Shown here one piece after another: positions 15,983 through 62,695 of a DNA stretch of 64,000 bases. The notes beneath the pieces were generated by a model, which searched no databases, was not told the DNA's origin, and worked only from the letters and a program-made list of their open reading frames with translations. The DNA comes from a virus. The stretch's first letter is position 1. Every line of letters begins with the position of its first letter. A program made the position numbers and the translations under genes. Location: positions 11,382-75,381 of the IMG/VR virus record IMGVR_UViG_3300025030_000010; one strand, given 5' to 3'.

Positions 15983-16198
15983 ATGGTAAACAATATCACA
16001 GTGGCAACTTCTGGCTGTTGTGCGATGTGTGGATTTATCACAAACAACAAGGTGATTTGGATTTCAGGGTTAATTGTAGTTCTAATTACCTGGATTTATT
16101 CACTCGTGAACATCATCGTTAATTGCCGTCGGCGCAACAAGACACTCAAACGACTACACGAAAGGAGACTTAGACGTGAGCATACCAAGCCCGCCTGA
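15983..16198 (+). CDS. Small membrane protein (possible lysis function)
   Basis: One hydrophobic segment plus basic C-terminus; GGAGG RBS. Confidence 0.45.
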   Translation: MVNNITVATSGCCAMCGFITNNKVIWISGLIVVLITWIYSLVNIIVNCRRRNKTLKRLHERRLRREHTKPA

Positions 16199-24037: not shown

Positions 24038-24705
24038 CGCTTTGCCTCCCTGGCAGCCTTCTTTGCTGCCTTGTCGAGTTTGATTTGCTTCTTGCGTGCC
24101 GCTTTCTCTTTCTTTGTCATTGAGATTTCATCGAGTGCCGCTTTTTGTTCAGAGTCGAGCGGGTGCGTGTTGTCCCCACCTATGCACTGCGCGATCTTCG
24201 CAAGACCGAAAGCGTCACCCTCGTCATTCGTCTTCGAGATGTATCCCCACTGTCTGAAGACGTGCATCATGATCAGGTCTTTTGCGCCGCTGCCTTTGCC
24301 GAGAACGAACTTCTTGAGTGACGTGGGCTGAACGACAGTGAAGGGAATTGAGTGCTCAAACAGCAGCATCCTAATCACCCCTCCAAGTTCTGCTGTCGCT
24401 TCACGATTGAACGGAGAGCCGAAAGAATAACCCTCGACACAAACAGAAGTGGGGTTAACTCTCGTCAAGATGCGATTCAACATACAGTAGATTTCGGAGA
24501 GTCTCGCTTCACCTTGGCTCTTAACCTGTATCGATGTTGAGTAAATGCGTTTGCCGTTGCCGTCGATGAACGCAACGCCAGAAGAGGTTAACGAAAGATC
24601 GAAGCCTCCGTATACAGCTAGAGGCTTCGATGCGCTACGTTTGACAGGTGTTCGTCTACTCATACTTTGCTTTCCTTTTCGGACGAATCGATTCTTCGAT
24701 GTCAT
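24034..24705 (-). CDS. RuvC-like Holliday junction resolvase
   Basis: GFDLSLTSSG, VEGY, ELGG, PTSLKKF and DEGDA acidic motifs. Confidence 0.85.
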   Translation of the reverse strand: MTSKNRFVRKGKQSMSRRTPVKRSASKPLAVYGGFDLSLTSSGVAFIDGNGKRIYSTSIQVKSQGEARLSEIYCMLNRILTRVNPTSVCVEGYSFGSPFNREATAELGGVIRMLLFEHSIPFTVVQPTSLKKFVLGKGSGAKDLIMMHVFRQWGYISKTNDEGDAFGLAKIAQCIGGDNTHPLDSEQKAALDEISMTKKEKAARKKQIKLDKAAKKAAREAKR

Positions 24706-50756: not shown

Positions 50757-51368
50757 TTAGAAATCGTATTGACTTCTCCAACTACTTGCCTTCATTTGCT
50801 CTTTTCTTATCGCTGATATTTTACGCTTTGTTTCTTCGGTGAGACTTTTACCGAAATTGTGATTCTTCTCTCCGCGCTTTGCTGCCGCTTGCTTCTCTCT
50901 CGTCTCTTTGTTCTGAGCTTGAACTTTCACTCGCTCGCTCAATTCTTTTCTATATTGCGGCGAGTCATGAACAATTTTCATCTTCTTTCGGAACTCTTCA
51001 CTTTCCCAAAGTCGCTTCTTACTAACACTCATTTTCGATTTAATCTCAGCAGTCAGAGAGAACCCGTAACCGCCGTCAATCATGTTCGTGAGATTTGCTC
51101 CGAGTGATTTGAAATAATCGATCCACCATGATTCCGATTCTTGCCATTGTGAATCACGGACTCGCTCAAGAATTATCAACTCTGGAATCAGCTTCAATCT
51201 TTTCAGCGAGCGTAACCAACAATGTTTGTGTGAGCGACCGCGATGCTTTAAATGTTGCTTGAATCGAATGTGGGGAGAGTCTGCTTTGCCGATGTAGCGG
51301 AGTTGATTTGTGCGTGGGTCGATCAGCCCATAAATGTGAGTGTATTTGATTGCTCGTATAGTTCGCAT
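50757..51368 (-). CDS. GIY-YIG homing endonuclease with NUMOD3-like tail
   Basis: IYGL...YIGK...R.KQH...E..WI...LTNMIDGG; EETKRKIS repeats. Confidence 0.85.
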   Translation of the reverse strand: MRTIRAIKYTHIYGLIDPRTNQLRYIGKADSPHIRFKQHLKHRGRSHKHCWLRSLKRLKLIPELIILERVRDSQWQESESWWIDYFKSLGANLTNMIDGGYGFSLTAEIKSKMSVSKKRLWESEEFRKKMKIVHDSPQYRKELSERVKVQAQNKETREKQAAAKRGEKNHNFGKSLTEETKRKISAIRKEQMKASSWRSQYDF

Positions 51369-51517: not shown

Positions 51518-52087
51518 TCAGTTAGTTGATTCCGCTCTGTTAGCTTTGGCGATTCGATACACAGACGCGATTCCGATTCCGAGCGCGTCTGCCACATGCT
51601 GCTTTGTCTTCCCTTTACTCAGCAGCTCAAGCACTTCTTTAGTTTTAGCGATAGCAGTTGGCTGTCTGCCTTTGTAAGCACCCGCTGCCTTAGCTATCGC
51701 TATACCGGCTGCTTGACGCTCAAGCATCATTTCTCGCTCGAACGTTGCAATGGCTCCCAGCATGGTGAGCATTAGCTTCCCCGTGGGCGTTGTCGTATCG
51801 AGATTGATATTTAGTACCTTGAATTCAACGCCCTTTTTCTGTAGCGCGTCAACGATGTTTAAAAGGTCTTGAGTGCTGCGGGCGATACGGTCAATCTTAC
51901 AGACCACGAGAACGTCACCCTCTCGAACATAGTCGAGCATAGCCACAAGCTGCGGCCTGTCTTTGCTGTTCTTCGCGCTCGCTTTCTCTTGATAGAGCTT
52001 ATCCACTTTCTCTCGTTTCAGCTCTGACAGTTGAGCCTCTAACGATTGGCCAGTGGTCGAGACTCTCGCGTATCCGATTTTAGCCAT
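51518..52087 (-). CDS. Small serine recombinase (resolvase/invertase)
   Basis: GYARVST, DRPQL, REGD, IDRIARS, AIATFERE, C-terminal HTH. Confidence 0.93.
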   Translation of the reverse strand: MAKIGYARVSTTGQSLEAQLSELKREKVDKLYQEKASAKNSKDRPQLVAMLDYVREGDVLVVCKIDRIARSTQDLLNIVDALQKKGVEFKVLNINLDTTTPTGKLMLTMLGAIATFEREMMLERQAAGIAIAKAAGAYKGRQPTAIAKTKEVLELLSKGKTKQHVADALGIGIASVYRIAKANRAESTN

Positions 52088-52228: not shown

Positions 52229-52429
52229 CTATTTGACTGCTCCGATTCGATATGTCAGACGCTTGTAAACCCATTCCGAAACGACTTCGGCAGCGTGTAT
52301 AGCGTCAAGACTATACTCGTTGATCAGCTCGATTATTGACGGGTTGACGTTCCAGATTTCTCTCTCGTGGTATCTCTGCTCAATACCTTTAATGCGCGTT
52401 GCAATCGTTTTTCTTTCTGCCGCTGCCAT
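52229..52429 (-). CDS. Hypothetical protein
   Basis: AAGGAG RBS after hairpin element. Confidence 0.5.
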   Translation of the reverse strand: MAAAERKTIATRIKGIEQRYHEREIWNVNPSIIELINEYSLDAIHAAEVVSEWVYKRLTYRIGAVK

Positions 52430-52453
52430 GTCGCTTTCTCCTTTGCTTCGTGT

Positions 52454-52517
52454 TTGACTGCTCAAGAAAGCTTTCCAGACGGCTGAGGATTGTCTGGAAA
52501 GCTCGATCAGAAGTCAA
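52454..52517. repeat. Intergenic hairpin element, copy 10
   Basis: TTGACTGCTCAA-stem/loop-CGATCAG-AAG-TCAA. Confidence 0.9.
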
Positions 52518-52534
52518 CGCTTGTGCTGATATGC

Positions 52535-52714
52535 TTAGAGATTGAAAGCAACGTTGAACGGAATCTCCAGTTTCTCTTCGGGTATGCAATATACCCACGC
52601 TTTCATTTCCGCTTTGTCGAATTCGAGCGTCACCGGCAATTCTGGGTTGAAATCTTTGTTGAGTCGTTTGTTTAATTTTTTTATTTGTCTTGGTGAGAGC
52701 GAATAAGTTTCCAC
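52535..52714 (-). CDS. 59-aa hypothetical protein (not in ORF track)
   Basis: AAGGAG RBS, GTG start, METYSLSPRQ... Confidence 0.5.
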   Translation of the reverse strand: METYSLSPRQIKKLNKRLNKDFNPELPVTLEFDKAEMKAWVYCIPEEKLEIPFNVAFNL

Positions 52715-52763
52715 GATGCTTCTCCTTTTGCTCGCTTTACCCGGCGAGCTTCGGGATTGTCAG

Positions 52764-54062
52764 TTAGTCGAACTGTGCCACTATGAGTTCACCAAACGGT
52801 GGCTCTTCCGCTCTATCCCCGAAAGTCTGAACCCAAAGAACGGGAAAGTCCGGCTCGGGTCCGAAGTCAGAGCATTCCATGTCTGTTAGATAGATTAAGC
52901 AAACGGGACGCTCTTCTTGCGCCATTGCTGCTGCGATAGCGGGAGAGAATCGAGTTCCTCCACCCCCTCTTGCGTTCAAGGTGACGGGGCGGTTCTCTTG
53001 TGTGAACTCTTCAGAGTGTCGGACTTGCGTATCAGCATAAGAGACGCGCAGAGTCGTGGGGTACTGTGATAAAATATCGTCACACTCACTGGCGAACTGC
53101 CTCAGCTCTTCCTCACCAACGGAGCAGCTCGTGTCGATTACAAGATCGATCGGCGGCAGCTCTTGATTGTAAAGCGAGGGGAGAACGATACCCGTGTGGA
53201 TATAGCGCGGGTTGGCTCTGCGCCATGTGTAATCGTTTCTCGACACTTGATCCACGAAGCGGCGCAGCGCTTCTCTCCAGTTTACTTTCGGCTCGTTCAA
53301 CTTTTTAATCAGTCGCTCGATTGAACCCGGCAGATTGCCTCTGCTCTTCGCTTGCGTTGCCGCTTGCGTTGCTGCTATCTGCCACTCTTGCTCCTGCTGA
53401 ATCATTTCTGACTCTGTCGCTCCTACTGTCGGATCTTCTCCGGGGTAATCTCTGACTTCGCCGCACCCGCTGCCGCTTCCCTTCTTAGGTTGTGCGTTCG
53501 GGTCTTGCGGCGCGTTCGGGTCTGGCTGCCCGTTCTGACTCGGCGGAGCGTTCGGGTCAGGTGGTGAGTTAGGGTCTGGCTGCGGCTGCTGCTGTGACGG
53601 ATCGTTGCCGTTCTTCTGTTGCTGATCTGCTGCGTCCTGCTGCTCTTGTTTGCGCTTGCCGTAAAGCTCGGAGAAAATCTTATCGGCGTGCATTCCCTTG
53701 TATTTATCATCGAGCAGTCCGTCCGTTGTCGGCATCTTCAGTCCGGAGTCAACGAGAATCTGATTAATTGCATAATCCGCCGCATCGTTCCAGATTTCAG
53801 AATCGCGATTGCCGCGTCTTGCGTGATGCGCTAACGCAAGATGTAAGACTTCGTGGCCCCATAGTCCTTTCGTTTCGTCAAGGTTCAGAGTGTCGATAAA
53901 GTCGGGATTGTAGCCGAACGATACCCCGTCAACCCACGCTGTTTTGCAGCTCTTGTCCTCGATAACGTTCAAGCGAAGAGCAAGAGAGCCAAAAAAGAAG
54001 TGGTCGAGCACGAGAGCTGTCCGCGCTTTGCGTACCTTGGTTACTGCGTTCATGACATCCAT
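52764..54062 (-). CDS. Metallopeptidase-like + vWA domain protein (DUF2201-like)
   Basis: TAWVDG, HEVLH, N.AADYAIN, Gln/Pro linker, DTSCS, GGGGT, LTD. Confidence 0.85.
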   Translation of the reverse strand: MDVMNAVTKVRKARTALVLDHFFFGSLALRLNVIEDKSCKTAWVDGVSFGYNPDFIDTLNLDETKGLWGHEVLHLALAHHARRGNRDSEIWNDAADYAINQILVDSGLKMPTTDGLLDDKYKGMHADKIFSELYGKRKQEQQDAADQQQKNGNDPSQQQPQPDPNSPPDPNAPPSQNGQPDPNAPQDPNAQPKKGSGSGCGEVRDYPGEDPTVGATESEMIQQEQEWQIAATQAATQAKSRGNLPGSIERLIKKLNEPKVNWREALRRFVDQVSRNDYTWRRANPRYIHTGIVLPSLYNQELPPIDLVIDTSCSVGEEELRQFASECDDILSQYPTTLRVSYADTQVRHSEEFTQENRPVTLNARGGGGTRFSPAIAAAMAQEERPVCLIYLTDMECSDFGPEPDFPVLWVQTFGDRAEEPPFGELIVAQFD

Positions 54063-54142
54063 TTTAGCCTCCGAGTTGCATTAATTTTCCGAGTAGAACA
54101 ACAGCGACAGCGAAGAGAACAAAAAACAAAAGCGCTTTCATG

Positions 54143-55081
54143 TTAGCCACCCATGTATGCGCTCATGGCGTCTAATATCGCTTGCGCATCATCCGCGACC
54201 ACTTTTCGGACGTTGATATCTTTCCGAAGCTCGACTGGCTCCGTGTGGCACAATTTCGCTTCCACTATCTTGCGCAGCTCCTCAAGTGCCGGGTCGTTTG
54301 CAATGTTGAGCTTAGGCAACAGCTCCGTTATTTCAACGATGTTACCAATGAGCGTATCGTGGAAGATTGCTTTGGGGTCCTTCAGAGAGTCGGCAGCTTT
54401 CGAAACGACTTTATAAAGCCGCTCGTAAAGATCAGCCATTGCTGTGTTGACTCTCTGCTCCGCTCTCTCAGTAATCGAGCGTTGAATCTGTTCTACTTCG
54501 TCCCCTTGCAACATGACTCTGAAGTCCTCAGCAGCGGGGAGCGGAGACACGTCAAAGTTGAAGGCGTACTTTCTGCGGATTTGAGCTGCGCTGGGGTAAT
54601 CGTCTGGGTTAAACAGTCCGGCGAGCATGTCGCGGGCTTGCTCGATCAGCGCGGGGTAATTCGCTTCGAAGTCGTCCACGGCGTTGTTAAACAGGTTCCG
54701 GAGTCTTCTCATTTCATCGGTGAATTCCATGTAGCTCGTTGCGGGGAGCATTCTGTTTCCGTCGTCTGTCCAAGGCAGCGTGTTCGAGTAATAAAACGTT
54801 CTCGCTGCTGTCACAGTCGAGGCGATTTTCTTTAATGCGTCTTGCGCTATCAGGAGCTTATTGTAACGGCCCGTTGCTGCTGCGTTGCCGAAGTCTTCGG
54901 CGACTCGCTTCGTTGCTGCCGTGTCGTGCTTTCGTGCTGTCCACTGACTGATAGAAAGGTTGATCAGCATGGCTTTTTGCGTCAAGCTCTTGCCGTCAAT
55001 GTTGCTCCCTTTCGGCGGTAAGTTCTTCAGTGCGTTTCTCGTGGTGACGTTCTCGATTTTGACTCCCTTGGTTCTTGCCAT
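54143..55081 (-). CDS. Helical protein typical of AAA/vWA phage modules (DUF3150-like)
   Basis: TLPW.D.G.R.LP and LFNPDDYP motifs; between AAA and vWA genes. Confidence 0.6.
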   Translation of the reverse strand: MARTKGVKIENVTTRNALKNLPPKGSNIDGKSLTQKAMLINLSISQWTARKHDTAATKRVAEDFGNAAATGRYNKLLIAQDALKKIASTVTAARTFYYSNTLPWTDDGNRMLPATSYMEFTDEMRRLRNLFNNAVDDFEANYPALIEQARDMLAGLFNPDDYPSAAQIRRKYAFNFDVSPLPAAEDFRVMLQGDEVEQIQRSITERAEQRVNTAMADLYERLYKVVSKAADSLKDPKAIFHDTLIGNIVEITELLPKLNIANDPALEELRKIVEAKLCHTEPVELRKDINVRKVVADDAQAILDAMSAYMGG

Positions 55082-55105
55082 GTCGTTTCTCCTTTTGTTG
55101 CTGTG

Positions 55106-55171
55106 TTTGACTGCTCAAACGAGACGCTGGAGACGGCAAATATTGTCTCCAGCGCTCTATCAGCTTTCAAA
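55106..55171. repeat. Intergenic hairpin element, copy 9
   Basis: TTTGACTGCTCAA-stem/loop-CTATCAG-CTT-TCAAA. Confidence 0.9.
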
Positions 55172-55176
55172 CGTTA

Positions 55177-56172
55177 TCACACCATGACATCGGCGTTTCG
55201 TGCTGTCCATTCAATAAATGCTTTCGTCACACACACGGACTGATTAGTGCGGCAAGAGTCGCGCACTAGCAGAACGTTGAACTCTGCGGGAAGTCGATCA
55301 GCGAAGCGGAGCAGACGTTCAAAGTTATTCTCTGTTGCTTTGCGTGAAAGCGCACCGCAGAGAGCATACAGGACGGCGGGGTTTGTCGGAACGTCAACTT
55401 TGTCTGGGTCGAGCAAGATCATGTCCGGGTTAGGCAGCTCTCTGAAGATTTTAAGAAAACCCATGAACTCTGCGGCGAACGCTTCCCCGACTGCTCCGGT
55501 GTAAACGTCAAGCTCGACTGCTGCGGGCAACTTCATGTCGAGCAGTGCGCCCAGATTCGTTACAGTTCGAGGGCTGGGGCTGTTCACAAGATCAGCACTG
55601 GCAACAAACTTGTGGAGCATTTCGGGGCGGTATTTGATGTAATAAACGACAGGAATCGGGACCCCGTTATTCAACGCCCAAGTGCACCAGTCGTCCGTGT
55701 CAACGTCAAGCTGGACGATTGTAGCGAAACGACTTTTGATGGGTTCGAGCAGACCAGAAACGCCGGCTCTGTCTTCGCGTCTGTTCGTTGCTGCTACAAA
55801 TGTCACCATATCGCTGATCTTGTGTCCGTTGATTTCACGAGCTAACAAGAGTTGCATTGCCGCAGCTTGCACGCTCATAGGCGCTTGCCCCAAGTCGTCA
55901 AAGAAGCCGATTGTTGGCGTTGTCGCGTCAAGCAACTTTCTCAATTCGCCGTAGGGGAGGAACTCTGCTGCGCCGTTGACGATACCCGGCAGACCCTTAA
56001 AGTCTGTCGGATCGGAAACAACGGGGTGAAAGATTACAAGCTCGGCACCCGCTGCTGCTGCTGCGCTTGCTACTATGTCAGACTTCCCAACGCCCGGGGC
56101 CCCTTTGATCAGTATGGGTCGGCGTGCTGCGATACATGCGGACAATACAGTGGTCAGACTCGATGCTTTCAT
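55177..56172 (-). CDS. MoxR-like AAA+ ATPase
   Basis: GAPGVGKS, FFDDL, AATN, SRF, SPRT. Confidence 0.88.
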   Translation of the reverse strand: MKASSLTTVLSACIAARRPILIKGAPGVGKSDIVASAAAAAGAELVIFHPVVSDPTDFKGLPGIVNGAAEFLPYGELRKLLDATTPTIGFFDDLGQAPMSVQAAAMQLLLAREINGHKISDMVTFVAATNRREDRAGVSGLLEPIKSRFATIVQLDVDTDDWCTWALNNGVPIPVVYYIKYRPEMLHKFVASADLVNSPSPRTVTNLGALLDMKLPAAVELDVYTGAVGEAFAAEFMGFLKIFRELPNPDMILLDPDKVDVPTNPAVLYALCGALSRKATENNFERLLRFADRLPAEFNVLLVRDSCRTNQSVCVTKAFIEWTARNADVMV

Positions 56173-56191
56173 GTTGTTTCTCCTGTGTTCG

Positions 56192-56290
56192 TTAGTTGTC
56201 GGAATGCTTCGTGTGAACGTGCTTTAAAAGTGTGAACATGCGGCGACAGGGCTTGCCGCAGTGTGAACAGTAATAGATTGGACGCTTCAT
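56192..56290 (-). CDS. 32-aa C2H2 zinc-finger micro-protein (not in ORF track)
   Basis: MKRPIYYCSHCGKPCRRMFTLLKHVHTKHSDN; ATGA overlap with upstream gene. Confidence 0.6.
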   Translation of the reverse strand: MKRPIYYCSHCGKPCRRMFTLLKHVHTKHSDN

Positions 56291-56637
56291 TGTTTCGAAT
56301 CGTTGCAGAAGTGGTCGCCCGCTTCGCTGTGTAGCATTGACATTCCGCAGCGTGGGCAGATTGTCGTGTATGCGTCTGAGGACGGCCAGTTTGTGAGCTT
56401 CATTTTTTCAGTATGATCGACAAAGACAACGCGCTTCCCGTCTGCTTCGTCAAGAAAGCGTTTAATCAGCTTTCCCTGATAGCGAAAGCAAGCAACGACA
56501 AAATTCCCGAACTGCTCATAGAATTCAATCGTCCTCAGCTTGCAATAACGTTCTGCACCGTGAAAGACCAGAACTTTCTCTCGGGGTGAAACTACCCAGC
56601 GGCTCCCGCTGTTGTTCAGATAAAGCGTTTGACTCAT
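56287..56637 (-). CDS. Hypothetical protein with C-terminal zinc ribbon
   Basis: AAGGAG RBS after hairpin; CPRCG...C. Confidence 0.6.
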   Translation of the reverse strand: MSQTLYLNNSGSRWVVSPREKVLVFHGAERYCKLRTIEFYEQFGNFVVACFRYQGKLIKRFLDEADGKRVVFVDHTEKMKLTNWPSSDAYTTICPRCGMSMLHSEAGDHFCNDSKQ

Positions 56638-56659
56638 GACTTTCTCCTTTGCTCGTTGT

Positions 56660-56725
56660 TTGACTGCTCAAGAAAGCGCTACAGAAGACGGCAGGAATCG
56701 TCTGTAGCGCTCGATCAGAAGTCAA
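56660..56725. repeat. Intergenic hairpin element, copy 8
   Basis: Same conserved ends, different stem. Confidence 0.9.
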
Positions 56726-56774
56726 TACAGTATGTGGTGAACGTTCATGCCGCAGCGCTCAATGTCGAGATTAA

Positions 56775-56993
56775 TTAGTCGTGTCCTTCAAAGTCAAAAT
56801 AAGCCTGAAGTCCGAGAGCGGCGAGCGCTTTGGCTGCGATGTCGAGAAGATGATCCTTGCATACCTTGATTTCACTCCCGCATGTCGGGCAATTATCGCT
56901 TGTGATAATGTGAGTTGCGGGCTTTTTGCAATAATCGCAGTCAAGCCCGTGTGCTGCGTCTTTACTATCTATCTCTCTAATCGTCTCTTTCAT
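56775..56993 (-). CDS. Small Cys/His-rich protein
   Basis: CDYC...CPTC...CKDH; GAGGAG RBS. Confidence 0.6.
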   Translation of the reverse strand: MKETIREIDSKDAAHGLDCDYCKKPATHIITSDNCPTCGSEIKVCKDHLLDIAAKALAALGLQAYFDFEGHD

Positions 56994-57016
56994 TCTGTTT
57001 CTCCTCGTTGCTGTAT

Positions 57017-57076
57017 TTGACTGCTCAAGCGAAGCGCTACAGCGGTGCTTTGCTGTAGCGTTCTATCAGCGGTCAA
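57017..57076. repeat. Intergenic hairpin element, copy 7
   Basis: Same conserved ends, different stem. Confidence 0.9.
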
Positions 57077-57079
57077 GCG

Positions 57080-57829
57080 CTATGCTTCTTTGCGATGATA
57101 CACTTTCTGCCCTGCTGCGTTCTTCTCGACAGTCAGAACGCCGAAGCTGATCAGTGCGTGTAGGATGCTGCGGGTAATGTTACCCGTTTTGGGGTTTGAC
57201 TCGCCGCCCTTTGCAACATGAAGATCATCCGATTTCTGTTGAATGTCTTTGAAGCTGATACCCTTTTTCCCGATCTTCAGCAGCACGTCCGTGATAGCCA
57301 TGTATCTCGAATAGCTGGGCGGGGCGGCGACTTTCGCGGGCTTTGCTGCTTTGTCTGCTTTCAGCTCGCTGGTGCTCTTCGCTTTCTTCGCGGGCTTCGT
57401 TGCTTTCGGGGACTCAGGGTTGACGGGGACAACGAAGCCGAGCAGCTCAAGCGTTGCTTTCGTTGCGTCTGTAATCTGCTCCTCTGCTTTCTTCGTCCCG
57501 TTGAAGTCGCTGAAGTCGAGGTCCGCGCTGTTCTTCATGATATCGCGGGCGATTGCTTTCTCGTTGATCTTAACGTTGATAGCGGGCTTGAGTCCCATTT
57601 TTTCGTTCATGTCAGAAGCTGCGGCGATCAGCGTGTCTCGTGTGAGCGCTGCGGGCGCTGCGGGTTCTTCTTTCTTCGCTGCGGGCGTCTTCGCTGCTTT
57701 CGCTGCTTTCTCGGGTTTGACGGGAGCAGCTTTCGCGGGAGTCGCTGCTGCTTTCTCTGTTGCGGGTTTAACTGCTTTCGAGGACTTCGCGGGCTTCGCT
57801 GCTGCTGTTGCTTTCGTCTCGGTGTTCAT
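57080..57829 (-). CDS. Basic Ala/Lys/Pro-rich protein with winged-helix-like C-terminus (paralogue of 38607-39449)
   Basis: AAGGAG RBS before MNTETK; frame stays open upstream. Confidence 0.7.
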   Translation of the reverse strand: MNTETKATAAAKPAKSSKAVKPATEKAAATPAKAAPVKPEKAAKAAKTPAAKKEEPAAPAALTRDTLIAAASDMNEKMGLKPAINVKINEKAIARDIMKNSADLDFSDFNGTKKAEEQITDATKATLELLGFVVPVNPESPKATKPAKKAKSTSELKADKAAKPAKVAAPPSYSRYMAITDVLLKIGKKGISFKDIQQKSDDLHVAKGGESNPKTGNITRSILHALISFGVLTVEKNAAGQKVYHRKEA

Positions 57830-58215
57830 GGTGTTCTCCTTTTCTGCTGTCGGTTGTGCTGCGTTGGCTTCGTCAATCTGCGAAAGAAGGGAAAGCGTGC
57901 TGCTGTCGTTTTTCAGTGTCGCGTTGTGCTGCTTAATCGCGTCTGCTGTTGCAATCGGGTCCGCCCCGTTCAAAACTGCTTTAATGCCGCTGAGAAATGT
58001 TCCGTCAAATGTCGTTTTTTCATTGTCTTCTCCTCGTTGATTCCGCTCTGTCATGTGCGTTGATTCCGATCTGATACGTGTTGATTCCATTACAGTATGT
58101 GAGTAATGCAAAGTCCTTTGCTCTGCGCTGCTCTCAACTGTCGCGCTGTCAATGTGTACTGTCGATTTCTTATCATGACTCTGAACATGCTTTCCCTCTC
58201 GCTGTCGTGTGTTTA

Positions 58216-58277
58216 TTTGACTGCTCAAGCGAAGCGCTTCAACGCTGATCTGTTGAAGCGTTCTATCAGCTTTCAAA
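58216..58277. repeat. Intergenic hairpin element, copy 6
   Basis: Same conserved ends, different stem. Confidence 0.9.
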
Positions 58278-58282
58278 TGCTC

Positions 58283-58534
58283 TCAAAGACTCTTAACAAC
58301 GCGCTCTAGATACTCTGACAATTCATGATCAATTCCCAGCAGCACTTGAGCAGCAGAGCGAATTCCCAGCAGTTTGTTGAAGTGGCAACGAGCTTCAGAT
58401 TTTTCGTTGTGATACGCTTCACTGTAATCGTTTAGCACTGTGTCAAAGTATGCGCGAAGCGCTAAAACGTTGCTGTAATCAACATGCGTTACTGAATCAC
58501 TGCTCTGTTTAATCAACTTGTTTTTCTCGCTCAT
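58283..58534 (-). CDS. Early-region hypothetical protein
   Basis: Fills space between elements 5 and 6. Confidence 0.65.
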   Translation of the reverse strand: MSEKNKLIKQSSDSVTHVDYSNVLALRAYFDTVLNDYSEAYHNEKSEARCHFNKLLGIRSAAQVLLGIDHELSEYLERVVKSL

Positions 58535-58556
58535 GATATCCCCTCTGCTGCTGTAT

Positions 58557-58621
58557 TTGACTGCTCAAGAAAGCACTACAGAACGCGCTAGAATCGTCTG
58601 TAGTGCTCTATCAGAAGTCAA
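58557..58621. repeat. Intergenic hairpin element, copy 5
   Basis: Same conserved ends, different stem. Confidence 0.9.
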
Positions 58622-58629
58622 CGCTTCTC

Positions 58630-58824
58630 TTATGCTTCACACTCTTCAAAATGAGCGTCACAGACAAAAATTCCGTCTTCGTCTATTGTAGTTGCACGCT
58701 CGTTGCAATCGCATATTTCACACATTGCGACACTGTCGAGATTCTCATAGTTCTCTGCTGCTTCTTCGATTGCTAATTTTCCGTATTTGTTCTCGATCAG
58801 CAATTCTCTGTAAGTCTTCGTCAT
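58630..58824 (-). CDS. Small acidic Cys-rich early protein
   Basis: CEICDC...CDAH; between elements 4 and 5. Confidence 0.65.
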   Translation of the reverse strand: MTKTYRELLIENKYGKLAIEEAAENYENLDSVAMCEICDCNERATTIDEDGIFVCDAHFEECEA

Positions 58825-58862
58825 TTCGTTTTCTCTCTTCGCGCTGTGTCAACGCTCGTTTA

Positions 58863-58930
58863 TTTGACTACTCAAGAACACGCTACAGAACGCGCTTAAA
58901 ATCGTCTGTAGCGTGCTATCAGTGTTCAAA
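58863..58930. repeat. Intergenic hairpin element, copy 4
   Basis: TTTGACTACTCAA...CTATCAG-TGT-TCAAA; stop codon of upstream gene lies inside the TTTGA arm. Confidence 0.9.
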
Positions 58931-59360
58931 TTATGTATGCGTGCTCTTCAAACTCTGTATCTCTCAGAGCTTCAATTAATTCGTCTCGTGTCATGTTTTC
59001 GCAGTCTTCGTCAATCAACGCTCTGTAATGCTCTCTCAGCTCTTCGTCTGTGAAGTTGAGAGCTGCGCAAGCGTTGATAACTGTGTTGACTTCGTCAAGA
59101 TCAGCGCAGAGCGTTTCTTTCTGTTCTTTGTCTACTTCAAACACTATGACTTTGAACTTTGCAGCGAGAACAACGCTTTTTAAATCTTCGTCACACTCAA
59201 GCTCATTTTCTGCGCAGTTGATAACAGCATAATTGACGCTGAAATTCTCGTGATAATCGCGCACATAAAACGTGTAAAATTCATCGCTCTGCTCAATGTA
59301 ATCAGCGTTTAAAAGCTCTTTCGTTGCTGCTGCTAGTTTCTTGAGTTCTCGCTTCTTCAT
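58926..59360 (-). CDS. Acidic early protein (no Gly/Pro/Trp)
   Basis: 144 aa between elements 3 and 4. Confidence 0.7.
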   Translation of the reverse strand: MKKRELKKLAAATKELLNADYIEQSDEFYTFYVRDYHENFSVNYAVINCAENELECDEDLKSVVLAAKFKVIVFEVDKEQKETLCADLDEVNTVINACAALNFTDEELREHYRALIDEDCENMTRDELIEALRDTEFEEHAYII

Positions 59361-59396
59361 GTCGTTTTCTCTCTTCGCTCGTTGTGAGCTGTTTTA

Positions 59397-59452
59397 TTTG
59401 ACTGCTCAAGCGAGACGCTGAAATTGCTTTCAGCGCTCTATCAGCGTTCAAA
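59397..59452. repeat. Intergenic hairpin element, copy 3
   Basis: Same conserved ends, short stem. Confidence 0.9.
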
Positions 59453-59454
59453 CG

Positions 59455-59907
59455 TTACTGCTCAACTGCTACATAATTCAACTGCTCGTGTCGCTCTAAC
59501 AGCGCGTCAATCGCTTTAATCAGCTCTTGAGCATTGAACAACAGAGCTAAATCAATGTCTTCAGTAGTACAATTCCCGTTTTCATCATAAATCCCTAGCT
59601 CTAAATAGTGTTTTGCAAAATCGTTCTCTTCTTCGTTGAAACAGATAATCGCTTGACAGTCTTTTTCATAACATTTTGTGTCAACTGTTATTGCATTATC
59701 TTCGTATCTGTCAGCGTGTCGCATCTCGAAAACAAGTTCTGTCTGTGAAGCGTTCAATGCTTCAACGCGCTGCTCATAGAAGCTAATACGCAAAAACTGA
59801 TCAATGCTAAAAGCGCGTGTTACTTCGTTGCTGATCTTGTTTTCTCTGTTGAAGTAATTGAGAATCACTGCGTTCTTTGCTGCTGTCGTGTCTAGTGTGC
59901 ATTTCAT
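59455..59907 (-). CDS. Acidic early protein
   Basis: 150 aa between elements 2 and 3. Confidence 0.7.
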   Translation of the reverse strand: MKCTLDTTAAKNAVILNYFNRENKISNEVTRAFSIDQFLRISFYEQRVEALNASQTELVFEMRHADRYEDNAITVDTKCYEKDCQAIICFNEEENDFAKHYLELGIYDENGNCTTEDIDLALLFNAQELIKAIDALLERHEQLNYVAVEQ

Positions 59908-59945
59908 GTTGTTTTCTCGCTTCGCGCTGTATCAGCGCTGTTTTA

Positions 59946-60005
59946 TTTGACTACTCAAGCGCAAGCGTCAACGCTGCTCTGTTGACGCTGCTATCAGCAT
60001 TCAAA
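59946..60005. repeat. Intergenic hairpin element, copy 2
   Basis: Same conserved ends, different stem. Confidence 0.9.
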
Positions 60006-60083
60006 ATAATCGATCTGCGAAATTATCAACAAACATACAGACAACAAAAGTTGAAATCAGCGCATAAAATATGAAGTCGTTTT

Positions 60084-60458
60084 TCATGCGATACGCTCGA
60101 CAATCATCGTTGAATCTTCGTCAACAATGTATCGAGTCTCGTTTACTTTCAGCGTTTCAAGCGCTAACACGTCTTCAGTGCTCATAGATACAAGCTCATA
60201 CTGTGATGTAATTGTGAACAACGAAACGTTGCTTAAAATAGCTGCTTTGCTCTCTGCGTCAATTACGTTGAAGCGCTTGCTTTCTTTGTAATAATCGAAA
60301 ATTTGCACACATGCTTTGATATTCATTGCACAATGTTTTCTAAACATCTTGTTAAATTTATCAGCTTCTTTCAGTGCGATTTTTTCGTCTGCGTAAACTA
60401 AACATTTTTCAATCAGTTGCATCTCTGCGTTCACTAGAACAACTTGATATTCACTCAT
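60084..60458 (-). CDS. First early protein (no Gly/Pro/Trp)
   Basis: 124 aa after element 1. Confidence 0.7.
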   Translation of the reverse strand: MSEYQVVLVNAEMQLIEKCLVYADEKIALKEADKFNKMFRKHCAMNIKACVQIFDYYKESKRFNVIDAESKAAILSNVSLFTITSQYELVSMSTEDVLALETLKVNETRYIVDEDSTMIVERIA

Positions 60459-60493
60459 TTCGTTTTCTCTCTTCGCGCTGTGTCAGCGCTGTT

Positions 60494-60568
60494 TTATTTG
60501 ACTGCTCAACACAGCAGCGCAGCGTTTAAAATGTGACTCGCTGCGCTGCTCTATTAAGTTTCAAATAA
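60494..60568. repeat. Intergenic hairpin element, copy 1 (divergent right arm)
   Basis: TTATTTGACTGCTCAA...AGCAGCGCAGCG/CGCTGCGCTGCT...CTATTAAG-TT-TCAAATAA. Confidence 0.85.
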
Positions 60569-60911
60569 CTGCTAATTCATATCTTGTGTTCGTTGTGATG
60601 TCTTACTGCTTCAGCTACTCGCTCATTATTTAAGACTGTATGAGAGCTAATTTAGTACACAGCGCGTAAAAGTTAATTATCGACTCTTGCTAGATAACAC
60701 AGTCGTTTTCGCTTTTTTCAGTTCAGCGTTGCGATGTCATTTCTCTACTCAGTGACAGTCAAGCGCACTATTCAATTATCAAAGAACTCTGAAGTTTAAG
60801 AACTCGCTGCTGTTGCGCTGTTTAAGCGCTTAGAGTGTCAGAGCGAGAGAAAGCAGAGTTGACGCGCTTTCTTTTGTGCTGCGTTTCAAGTTGTCAAATG
60901 CTACAGCTCAC

Positions 60912-60939
60912 AATCTACACGCTATTGATAATATTTCAA
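60912..60939 (-). promoter_or_regulatory. Possible sigma70 promoter for the early array
   Basis: TTGAAA-16 nt-TAGATT; same TAGATTGTG as the 39511 promoter. Confidence 0.4.
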
Positions 60940-61434
60940 GCAAAAAACCAGTAGATAAACGATTTCCTTTAAAATAATTTGCGCTGCTCTTCGCAGTGCT
61001 CAAAGTCGCGTTCTCGCTGCGTTTGTGTGCTGTCGCGCTTATGCTCAAAACACAGCGTAAAACGAACGCATTGACGCTGTAGCGCGTTAACTCTGCTCGT
61101 GTGATAAATGAGACGCGCAGCAGCAAAGACAGCTTAAAACGCAGATAAGAGCGCTGGGCATAGTTGAGCGTGAAATGATCGACAACACAGCGACACGTCA
61201 ACGCAGATCGAAACGAGAGCAGAACACAGCAGCGCGTCAACGTCTCGTGTGCTCGTTGCTGTTGAATGAAAGCTGTCAGATAACACACTATCAGAATGTA
61301 AAACCCTCGTTGCTATACTTGAGTAATGCACGCGAAGCGCTTTAATGTCCTAAATGACTCTTTTTTGTGCAACAATCGCGCAAGTGCTAGTAATCACAGG
61401 AAAACGATTTTGCGCAGCTCCTCAGATCGAAAAG

Positions 61435-61530
61435 TTATCAACATTTGACGCTGTTTTATCAACAGAATGCTATTTCATAAAAACACGCTGAAAACACGAG
61501 TTATCAACAGTTTTCCTCTACTTATCAACA
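61435..61530 (+). repeat. Four TTATCAACA boxes
   Basis: Exact copies at 61435, 61456, 61501 and 61522. Confidence 0.8.
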
Positions 61531-62695
61531 TGCCCTAAAACGAACAAAAACCCGCTTTTTAGACGTTCAAGCGTCAACGTATAGCTCTCTATGCACACGT
61601 TTTCTGTATCTTCAGCGCGTCCTCTGCGAAAGCGCATGAATAAAGGGTTTAGCTGTCATATTGATAAATGAAATCCAACTTTCAAAACGAATAATAGACC
61701 CCTTAAAACGCATCTCAGCACAAAACGCATGAAACAACGCTCTGACACACTCAAGCGCATACATGAGAGCATGAACAGCACAACACTAAACAAACGCGCT
61801 GAACATGCTTTCCCTTTCGCACGTCAACACGTCAACATGCTATAGATAATCGCGCACACGATATACAGCAACACACTCAAGTTTAACCTCTATAAACTTC
61901 CTCAAAGTCACATACTCTGCTAAACAATTCCCTTCTAAATATCTCTTGCATACTGTATGAGCTAACGAAAGAAAGTCCAACAGCACGTTTCTAAAAAGCA
62001 CACAACACAGCAGAACAATCAACGCGCATGACCTCACATAGTTAGCACTGAACTTAATCAAGTTTCGTTTCGTCTTAAAACAGCGATAACACAGCAGCAC
62101 ACACAACAATGAATCAAACTAACAGTTAGTTAATCACAGTCAGCGTGTATATGTTCAACGTATAGAAACTTACAGCATACAAGTGTAGAAAGATCAATTT
62201 CCCGTAGCTCAAAGCTCTCTGCTTTCATGTCGTGAAACTTTGCAGCTCAACAGCACGACACGAGCGCAGCAGATCAGCAGCAGCACACAGCGCAGCGTCT
62301 CACTTGAGCAAGCGCAAGCGATAGCACACGAAACAGCGTCAACACGCTATCACACGAGCACAACAGCGCATCGATAGCACGCTTTATCACAGCTCTGCCC
62401 TTGATAGCACTCGCTCTGCTGCTTCGCTGCTCTCGCCCTGCCCTGCTCGATGCCCTGAGCTGCGCTGCTGTCGATGCTGAGAATTGCGCAAGGGCACCCC
62501 GTGTTTTCAGACACGGTGGGTAGCCAGAAACGCGGAGGTTCCGGATTCTAAACTTTTAGAGTCGAAATCTTATTTTTCTATATAGGGGAAGAAAAAATTT
62601 AAACGTGACGGTGACGGCGTAAAACGAGACACGCGAAAAATCGAAAAGCGCTGGAAAAATTTTCCAAAAAAATTACCGCTGAGGAGCAAAACGAT

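Follow-up and report, generated by a model that had tools for sequence, protein, structure and literature searches.

Ten sense-strand RNA hairpins in the early genes of an uncultured tailed phage: candidate RNase III-type processing signals

The early genes of an uncultured tailed phage, known from the IMG/VR virus record IMGVR_UViG_3300025030_000010, raise a simple question: why do copies of one and the same hairpin precede ten of their starts? We analyzed a window of 64,000 nucleotides, i.e., bases 11382-75381 of the 75,381-bp record (G000). In this stretch, an earlier note had described ten intergenic elements with fixed ends and variable stems, reading them either as an RNA-processing or antitermination signal or as a DNA recombination site for shuffling early genes. 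Our analysis favors the first of these possibilities. With a probability of roughly 0.55, we take the elements to be RNase III-type processing and stability signals of a polycistronic early mRNA—a reading that draws on their shared structure, the strand on which they fold, their placement ahead of ribosome-binding sites and their likeness to the early processing sites of phage T7.

A hairpin family that folds on the transcript strand

All ten elements were found where the earlier note had placed them, between early genes and in a single orientation, with lengths of 55-69 nt. The entire 75,381-bp genome contains exactly these ten copies, every one on the reverse strand. When one mismatch was tolerated, the 12-mer core of the element occurred 12 times, as compared to 1.25 ± 1.2 times in shuffled sequences; the two extra matches, at 24348 and 35606, fall within open reading frames (ORFs) and are not elements. 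Because the genes are encoded on the minus strand, the elements have to be read as the reverse complement of the + strand consensus given in the earlier note. In the sense of the mRNA, the consensus is 5' UUGA-NNN-CUGA-UMG, followed by a variable stem-loop and by NCU-UGAG-CAG-UCAA(A).

The ten copies fold into one common hairpin, with z scores between -2.6 and -6.3 against dinucleotide shuffles. From base to tip, this hairpin comprises a lower stem of 11 positions, a small, asymmetric internal loop with UM in its 5' and NCU in its 3' strand, an upper stem of 9-13 bp and a free-form apical loop, giving a total of ~21-24 interrupted pairs (19-24 in the minimum-free-energy, or MFE, folds). The claim that the inner stems differ in sequence yet stay paired proved correct: RNAalifold and pair counting on the ten copies revealed compensatory changes in 9 of 10 upper-stem pairs, with 99% of the cells paired—as opposed to 79% in shuffles and 30-46% when the partner strand was slid out of register. 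The lower stem, in turn, is formed by positions 5-15 paired with 62-72, such that CUGA lies opposite UGAG and the NNN segment pairs partly with CAG. This register is supported by variants in other contigs, with compensations at pair 15:62 (AU to UA in three copies) and at pair 7:70 (GC to AU or UA), while 16 of the 22 copies retain the G.G mismatch at 14:63 and five have a Watson-Crick pair in its place. These variants favor a continuous 11-position lower stem containing a G.G mismatch over the TTGA/TCAA helix, 3-nt bulge and CTG/CAG helix originally drawn for the elements. One copy, e10, is a variant in which the 5' box renders the middle helix fully paired.

Further copies were sought by means of pattern scans and a covariance model (R1). 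Searching Rfam and phage genomes with such a model had been suggested in the earlier note; comparison of the window with the Rfam families returned no match, and the pattern scans and model R1 identified further contigs carrying the element. Among the relatives of the window's phage, one contig (L081) contains the element and others (L057, L058, L133 and L051) a diverged form of it. A second lineage of carriers comprises a 59.7-kb phage (G001; loci L034-L036) and the contigs L038/L137, L131 and L132, and the element was found in one additional contig, L043. In 14 copies outside the window (from eight other contigs), both sides had changed in 15 of 21 pairs, and 87% of the cells were paired, compared with 68% in shuffles and 28-54% upon sliding. 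The lower stem and the loops show no variation across 14 canonical copies and drift, with compensation, only in the diverged relatives. Taken together, the 24 non-redundant copies on nine contigs (ten of them in the window), with covariation in every helix, constitute a well-supported RNA structure family.

BLAST found no protein common to G000 and G001, or to G000 and L043, and the AAA_5 ATPases encoded in the early regions of the two lineages could be aligned at the profile level only (84% probability, 25% identity). Homologues of the G000 ATPase with 75-79% identity exist on contigs of up to 69.8 kb, and the relatives compared here are those with 46-61% identity. Around these latter homologues, model R1 recognized a canonical element in one of 80 loci and detected none in the other 79; several of the 80 contain diverged elements or other long interrupted hairpins at the junction of the ATPase and DUF3150 genes. 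A strict two-box pattern had 0 matches in 185,579 species-representative genomes, and in metagenome contigs it retrieved two true carriers, three contigs of one family that matched by chance, and a single doubtful match. With an earlier pattern, 12 of 13 matches in IMG/VR were chance occurrences within coding genes. Likewise, megablast with the 9-kb block and blastn with one element against 50,697 GenBank phage records yielded only chance 18-mers in coding genes, and nothing was found in a prophage search of genomes with an alignment to the G001/L038 ATPase. Carriers from both main lineages were found in the same metagenomes (e.g., IMG 3300025030, 3300024999 and 3300025000), which makes co-infection by the two lineages plausible.

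The strand on which the hairpin forms could be identified by two measures. In 14 of 15 copies, folding of the sense strand gave the more stable structure (mean -26.9 vs. -23.4 kcal/mol for the antisense strand, p = 0.0004). Moreover, G.U pairs outnumber A.C oppositions by 22:1 on the sense strand of the upper stem (24 non-redundant copies, p = 6e-6), a count that may be biased by an alignment fitted to a sense-strand model, although the hairpins leave few alternative registers. An A.C opposition on the sense strand corresponds to a G.U pair on the opposite strand. The lower stem displays no such asymmetry (8 vs. 9). Since the G.U pairs occur almost exclusively on the sense strand—and not on the + strand, as had been thought—the folded molecule is the transcript or, formally, the non-template DNA strand. 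Folding of the sense strand argues against sites in double-stranded DNA, against cruciforms and against a bottom-strand fold of the attC kind.

Placement in the early operon and likeness to the T7 processing sites

All ten copies lie in sense, exclusively in spacers of the early block and ahead of the next Shine-Dalgarno (SD) sequence. The distance from element to start codon falls into two classes, 21-27 nt in six copies and 36-38 nt in four, with the SD sequence in between. On the upstream side, a distance of 3-17 nt separates six of the copies from the preceding stop codon, and a seventh is 49 nt away from it. For e7 and e9, the upstream ORF ends within the element, at the UGA of the 5' UUGA box; this arrangement had been attributed to copy 4, where the stop in fact ends 3 nt before the element. 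No ORF precedes e10. The idea that the elements separate the early genes holds for ten gene starts, whereas the ATPase gene and several genes downstream have no element.

Such an arrangement is reminiscent of known RNase III sites. An idealized substrate of the E. coli enzyme spans 22 bp, and loops or mismatches at the target confine cleavage to one strand, leaving stabilizing 3' hairpins behind (PMC3867540). The early precursor RNA of phage T7, roughly 7000 nt long, contains five of these signals (PMC3867540). We folded the T7 sites R0.3, R0.5, R1, R1.1 and R1.3 with the program used for the elements, and the bracket patterns of R0.3 and R1.1 were identical to that of the elements: going up from the lower stem, one base is unpaired, then come a lone pair and two more bases left unpaired before the ~10-bp upper stem begins, and the descending strand leaves three bases unpaired. 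According to the coordinates of Dunn and Studier, four of the five T7 early cuts reportedly fall 25-35 nt before the next ATG, and the R1.1 cut some ~120 nt before it; the equivalent point in the elements lies ~35-50 nt before the start codon. The two systems also share several sense-oriented, intercistronic hairpins in an early operon that is read by the host polymerase (a feature presumed for G000), one copy ahead of the first gene (R0.3 in T7, e10 here), a conserved loop region with a variable upper stem and a helix total close to the 22-bp ideal. Judged from their folds, the elements correspond in size and shape to the RNAs bound by class-1 RNase III of bacteria. In contrast to this structural agreement, there is no sequence similarity, and G000 carries ten copies in 8 kb. 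Moreover, the entire lower stem including the G.G mismatch is conserved here, while the lower stems of T7 differ between sites, and the element of G000 recurs in phages that share no BLAST-detectable protein with it.

On this basis, we suggest that the elements are RNA hairpins acting in cis on an early transcript, which the host RNA polymerase would synthesize leftward and probably as a polycistronic RNA. Host RNase III, or a similar double-strand-specific nuclease, would nick the internal loop on its 3' side, around NCU|UGAG, leaving a protective hairpin at the end of the upstream message. The downstream message would start ~35-50 nt ahead of its start codon and would carry a uniform leader and a ribosome-binding site (RBS). 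Host enzymes would have to do this work, since neither G000 nor G001 encodes an RNA polymerase or an RNase III above the curated family cut-offs (the phage RNA polymerase family PF00940 reached only 13 bits, below the Pfam cut-off). The ATPase/DUF3150 junction lends further support to a processing role, in that it often bears other long interrupted hairpins in the relatives tested. The RNA-processing option of the earlier note therefore fits the folding of the sense strand, the T7-like size and interrupted architecture, and the absence of a matching Rfam family, while nothing specific was found in support of its antitermination option. Conserved hairpins that punctuate an early transcript and are cut by host RNase III have a further precedent in the Bs-RNase III sites of Bacillus phage SP82, which differ from the elements in sequence family and phage group. 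The description 'undescribed' hence most likely suits the sequence family but not the kind of element, and no new mechanism would be called for. With Rfam, no match was obtained at the gathering score across the whole window, and one irrelevant microRNA match appeared at E < 5 between 52300 and 60700. By eye, the defining nucleotides of the K-turn, loop E, bulge-helix-bulge, SECIS, tetraloop-receptor and hairpin ribozyme motifs do not fit.

Several observations weigh against processing by RNase III. The lower stem and loops are invariant in the 14 canonical copies, unlike the variable lower stems of T7, and a structure-reading RNase III would not obviously need such constancy. Identical boxes occur in phages without BLAST-detectable common proteins, a pattern that a sequence-specific factor or horizontal spread would explain no less well. 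When the five T7 sites were made into a covariance model (R2), which captured only their 10-bp upper stem, this model found no match in the window. No host counterpart emerged, the strict motif being absent from all 185,579 species-representative genomes, and it is from a weak consensus scan that a single promoter, with none inside the operon, is deduced. The conservation of the boxes may reflect sequence preferences of the nuclease of one host, a different sequence-specific factor, or the recent horizontal spread of a 5' untranslated region (5'-UTR) module.

Some of these points would also be explained if the element were a sequence-specific, protein-binding RNA operator, its lower stem, G.G mismatch and loops forming the docking site for one host or phage RNA-binding protein. 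Candidates could be a repressor that shuts off translation of all early genes together, an antiterminator rich in arginine, or an endoribonuclease that, unlike RNase III, is sequence-specific. An operator would account for the invariance of the lower stem and loops in the 14 canonical copies next to an upper stem free to vary, for identical boxes in otherwise dissimilar lineages, for the fixed distances to the start codon and for the non-Watson-Crick covariation of M17 with N59 (A with G or U, C with U). However, the element overlaps neither the SD sequence nor the AUG. The factor would also have to be host-encoded because the carrier lineages have no BLAST-detectable protein in common, yet no host copy of the element was found. 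The diverged variants, which keep the helix and change its sequence, are better suited to a reader of structure. We regard an operator as unlikely. Pfam and PHROGs searches of the small early proteins of G000 and G001 identified no nuclease or RNA-binding domain. As a broader alternative, which we entertain only tentatively, the lower stem, G.G mismatch and loops could be recognized by some sequence-specific factor different from RNase III, for instance an endoribonuclease or RNA-binding protein of the host, or could form a minimal catalytic motif, with hairpin, leader and RBS together making up a horizontally mobile 5'-UTR cassette for swapping early, possibly anti-defence, genes among unrelated phages of one host.

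The hairpins might also work uncut, by blocking 3' exonucleases, by weak pausing or termination, or by insulating the translation of neighboring cistrons. Their stability, their location directly after stop codons and a short U-rich run behind e1, e3 and e6 are what such passive structures would show. However, no gene stands upstream of e10 that could need protection, a U-tract is missing from most copies and the terminator scan picked up none of them on the sense strand; a mere barrier would, in addition, have no need for conserved loops and a conserved lower stem. Taken together, these features make a purely passive role quite improbable, and RNase III-type processing remains the reading we prefer.

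Recombination sites, promoters and ribozymes as alternatives

The recombination-site option of the earlier note finds little backing in the sequence features examined here. As a mobile regulatory cassette or a recombination site in the DNA, akin to attC or PeSL, the element would serve chiefly to shuffle early genes, and conserved ends around a variable center are what such a site would display. In the same vein, each small gene upstream of the ATPase gene is an ORFan absent from the relatives compared, G+C is lower in the first 2.5 kb, the element is shared across lineages without detectable common proteins, and two incomplete copies look like scars. One of the latter is a relic 3' box near the end of the array, without a partner 5' box or stem. 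The other is a half-element in G001 (L034, ~16110-16175, minus strand), which keeps the 5' box and hairpin, has its 3' box seemingly cleanly deleted and lies directly upstream of an HNH homing-endonuclease gene. Against this option, the 75-kb genome of G000 gave no match to tyrosine recombinases (PF00589) and no GTTRRRY/RYYYAAC boxes were found; only two of ten copies pass a loose sigma-70 scan; neither G001 nor the G000 relatives compared yielded the resolvase gene that adjoins the array; and the wobble asymmetry points to the sense strand, whereas attC sites fold as the bottom strand. We consider a dedicated recombination site very doubtful.

The comparison with integron attC sites is instructive in itself. 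In both kinds of element, the conserved ends pair with each other, some positions are mismatched or extrahelical and the apex varies, and both lie between promoterless genes of one orientation. The elements differ in their tight spacing to the downstream RBS and in that G000 has no integron integrase; G001 encodes one ordinary integrase, 12 kb away from its element array. The R''/R' cores of attC (RYYYAAC ... GTTRRRY) are missing, the sense ends reading UUGAMNN ... AGUCAAA with no GTT/AAC on either strand. An attC identity was consequently rejected on account of the missing core sites, the lack of a tyrosine recombinase in G000 and the folding of the sense strand. The PeSL modules of T4-type phages combine a near-consensus sigma-70 promoter (-35/N17/-10) with a terminator-like stem-loop (PMC2839356, PMC4122927). 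They resemble the elements as repeated regulatory modules that precede small ORFan early genes within a variable region and offer potential homology for shuffling. In contrast, eight of the ten elements have no -10 box and their conserved parts pair across the stem. Membership in the PeSL group was ruled out, as only e1 and e2 pass the sigma-70 scan, with the -10 position in the variable stem. A shuffling role could nevertheless accompany processing by RNase III as a side effect: the ORFans behind e3-e10, the low G+C, the relic 3' box and the half-element of G001 make it plausible that repeated 5'-UTR modules provide homology for swapping small early genes.

A promoter function deserves mention because the 5' box opens with a -35-like hexamer, GAC(A/G)AT follows 17 nt downstream in five copies and the distance to the start codon is fixed. 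The element could thus be a sigma-70 promoter with TTGAC of the 5' box as its -35, or a hairpin promoter like those of N4 or Frpo. The sigma-70 scan, however, was passed by e1 and e2 alone (9/12), and the -10 position is located within the variable stem and has no equivalent in the copies of other phages. A variable 25-45 nt separates the two boxes, so they meet only on folding. The stem is too short for the Frpo type, and no phage RNA polymerase gene scored above the Pfam cut-off. Hairpin promoters of phage N4 have a stem of 5-7 bp and a 3-nt loop of fixed sequence, and are used by the phage virion RNA polymerase. The elements match neither dimension, with stems of 9-13 bp and variable loops of 4-14 nt, and the N4 type was rejected on these grounds together with the sub-threshold PF00940 score. 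A promoter is accordingly highly improbable. The scans for plain promoters and terminators gave a sigma-70 pattern in only two of ten copies and no terminator on the sense strand.

Conserved loop nucleotides between variable helices, a faint resemblance of CUGAUMG to the hammerhead CUGANGA and the presence of an RtcB ligase gene would be compatible with a small self-cleaving ribozyme or with the target of a trans-acting ribozyme. The element did not match any Rfam ribozyme even at E < 5, however, and it forms a single coaxial hairpin with no third helix or pseudoknot partner. A search for a trans-acting complementary RNA found no copy or complement of the boxes outside the elements within the window. 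We deem a ribozyme function extremely unlikely.

The early gene block and its surroundings

The coordinates of the elements and of other features of the early region are given in Table 1. A 127-bp 'terminal repeat' in the G000 record looks like an assembly overlap, since a repeat of equal length is found in an unrelated record. The record hence represents the complete genome, probably with arbitrary ends. G000 encodes a DNA polymerase with 46% identity to those of Pseudomonas phage JG054 and the Seurat/CAjan coliphages, a 1972-aa ORF with a weak match to a tape-measure family, tail-fibre genes, helicases, the RtcB ligase and an HU-like protein. Every gene between 51.5 and 60.5 kb lies on the minus strand, downstream of an ORF-poor, AT-rich stretch, which marks this block as a probable leftward early operon. 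The stretch itself probably contains the origin and the early-promoter region from which the operon would start. It harbors DnaA-box-like repeats and further short repeat families, and Rfam revealed no family match in it.

Table 1. Elements and other features of the early region of G000 (window coordinates)
Feature	Position	Strand	Context
e10, first in transcription order	60497..60565	-	MFE -34.1, z -5.3; before first early gene (60084-60458)
e9	59946..60004	-	38 nt before ATG at 59907; UGA of 5' box is stop of 28-codon mini-ORF
e8	59397..59451	-	3 nt past stop of 150-aa gene; 36 nt before ATG at 59360
e7	58863..58929	-	UGA of 5' box is stop of 144-aa gene; 38 nt before ATG at 58824
e6	58556..58621	-	21 nt before ATG at 58534; top covariance-model score, 83 bits
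e5	58216..58276	-	27 nt before 32-codon ORF overlapping start of 336-aa gene
e4	57016..57076	-	3 nt past stop of 336-aa gene; 22 nt before ATG at 56993
e3	56659..56725	-	21 nt before ATG at 56637
e2	55106..55170	-	between AAA_5 ATPase gene (55177-56172) and DUF3150 gene (54143-55081)
e1, last copy	52453..52517	-	23 nt before ATG at 52429
Relic 3' box (GAGCAGTCAAA)	52232..52242	-	final codons of ORF 52229-52429, directly before next SD and ATG
ORF-poor, AT-rich 2-kb stretch, 41% G+C	60570..62570	.	upstream of array
Four TGTTGATAA repeats, DnaA-box-like	61435..61530		within AT-rich stretch
Three GTGCTATC repeats	62320..62410		within AT-rich stretch
Mini-hairpins	58841..58855, 59377..59389, 59924..59938, 60475..60489		between e7-e10 and their RBSs
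Hydrophobic mini-ORF, 28 codons	60001..60086	-	overlaps preceding gene's stop codon
Hydrophobic mini-ORF, 25 codons	54066..54140	-	overlaps preceding gene's stop codon
Direct GGAATCAAC repeats (three, ~22 nt spacing)	58036..58088		start of 336-aa lysine/alanine-rich gene
Spacer with GC-rich hairpin	56173..56286		before ATPase gene; three GTTCACAC repeats at 56211, 56230 and 56261 (+ strand)
Conserved early-operon core	52764..56172	-	AAA_5 (MoxR-like) ATPase, DUF3150 protein, DUF2201 protein
Serine recombinase (resolvase/invertase type)	51518..52087	-	directly downstream of array
GIY-YIG/NUMOD3 homing endonuclease	50757..51368	-	directly downstream of array

Within the conserved core, the DUF2201 protein has metallopeptidase-like and VWA domains, and its PHROGs label 'HNH endonuclease' looks like a misnomer. 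In the second lineage, an AAA_5 ATPase is accompanied instead by a DUF7192 protein and a RadC-like JAB protein. No element is present in the spacer that precedes the ATPase gene of G000; the hairpin of this spacer, set amid the repeats, may be a separate operator or a middle promoter. The serine recombinase and GIY-YIG genes look like inserted mobile genes, as the recombinase was not found in the relatives compared.

Behind e7-e10, the longer leader with its mini-hairpin defines a cassette subfamily in the low-G+C part of the operon. The mini-hairpins have a stem of 4-6 bp and a loop of 3-5 nt, mostly GCGCTG-NNN-CAGCGC. On the + (antisense) strand, they are followed by TGTTTTATTT and score as intrinsic terminators, such that they may stop antisense transcription into the early genes. 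The overlap of the two mini-ORFs with the preceding stop codon is of the ATGA type of coupling. A further repeat was noted in the second lineage, where the palindrome GTTAAC is ~7-fold over-represented (100 occurrences in G001 vs. 13.9 ± 3.4 expected, and 22 vs. 2.3 in L038). It occurs roughly every 600 bp, often in hairpin loops and beside start codons; the window's phage shows no enrichment of this palindrome (11 vs. 18).

If the elements are indeed RNase III-type signals, the T7 model of early RNA—one long transcript made by the host polymerase and cut by a host nuclease into stable, well-translated messages—would extend to uncultured phages with large genomes. The element family could enter Rfam, and could aid the annotation of early regions and of ORFan, possibly anti-defence, cassettes. 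The identical boxes, finally, could reveal the sequence preference of one host nuclease, or a traffic of 5'-UTR modules between co-infecting phages.

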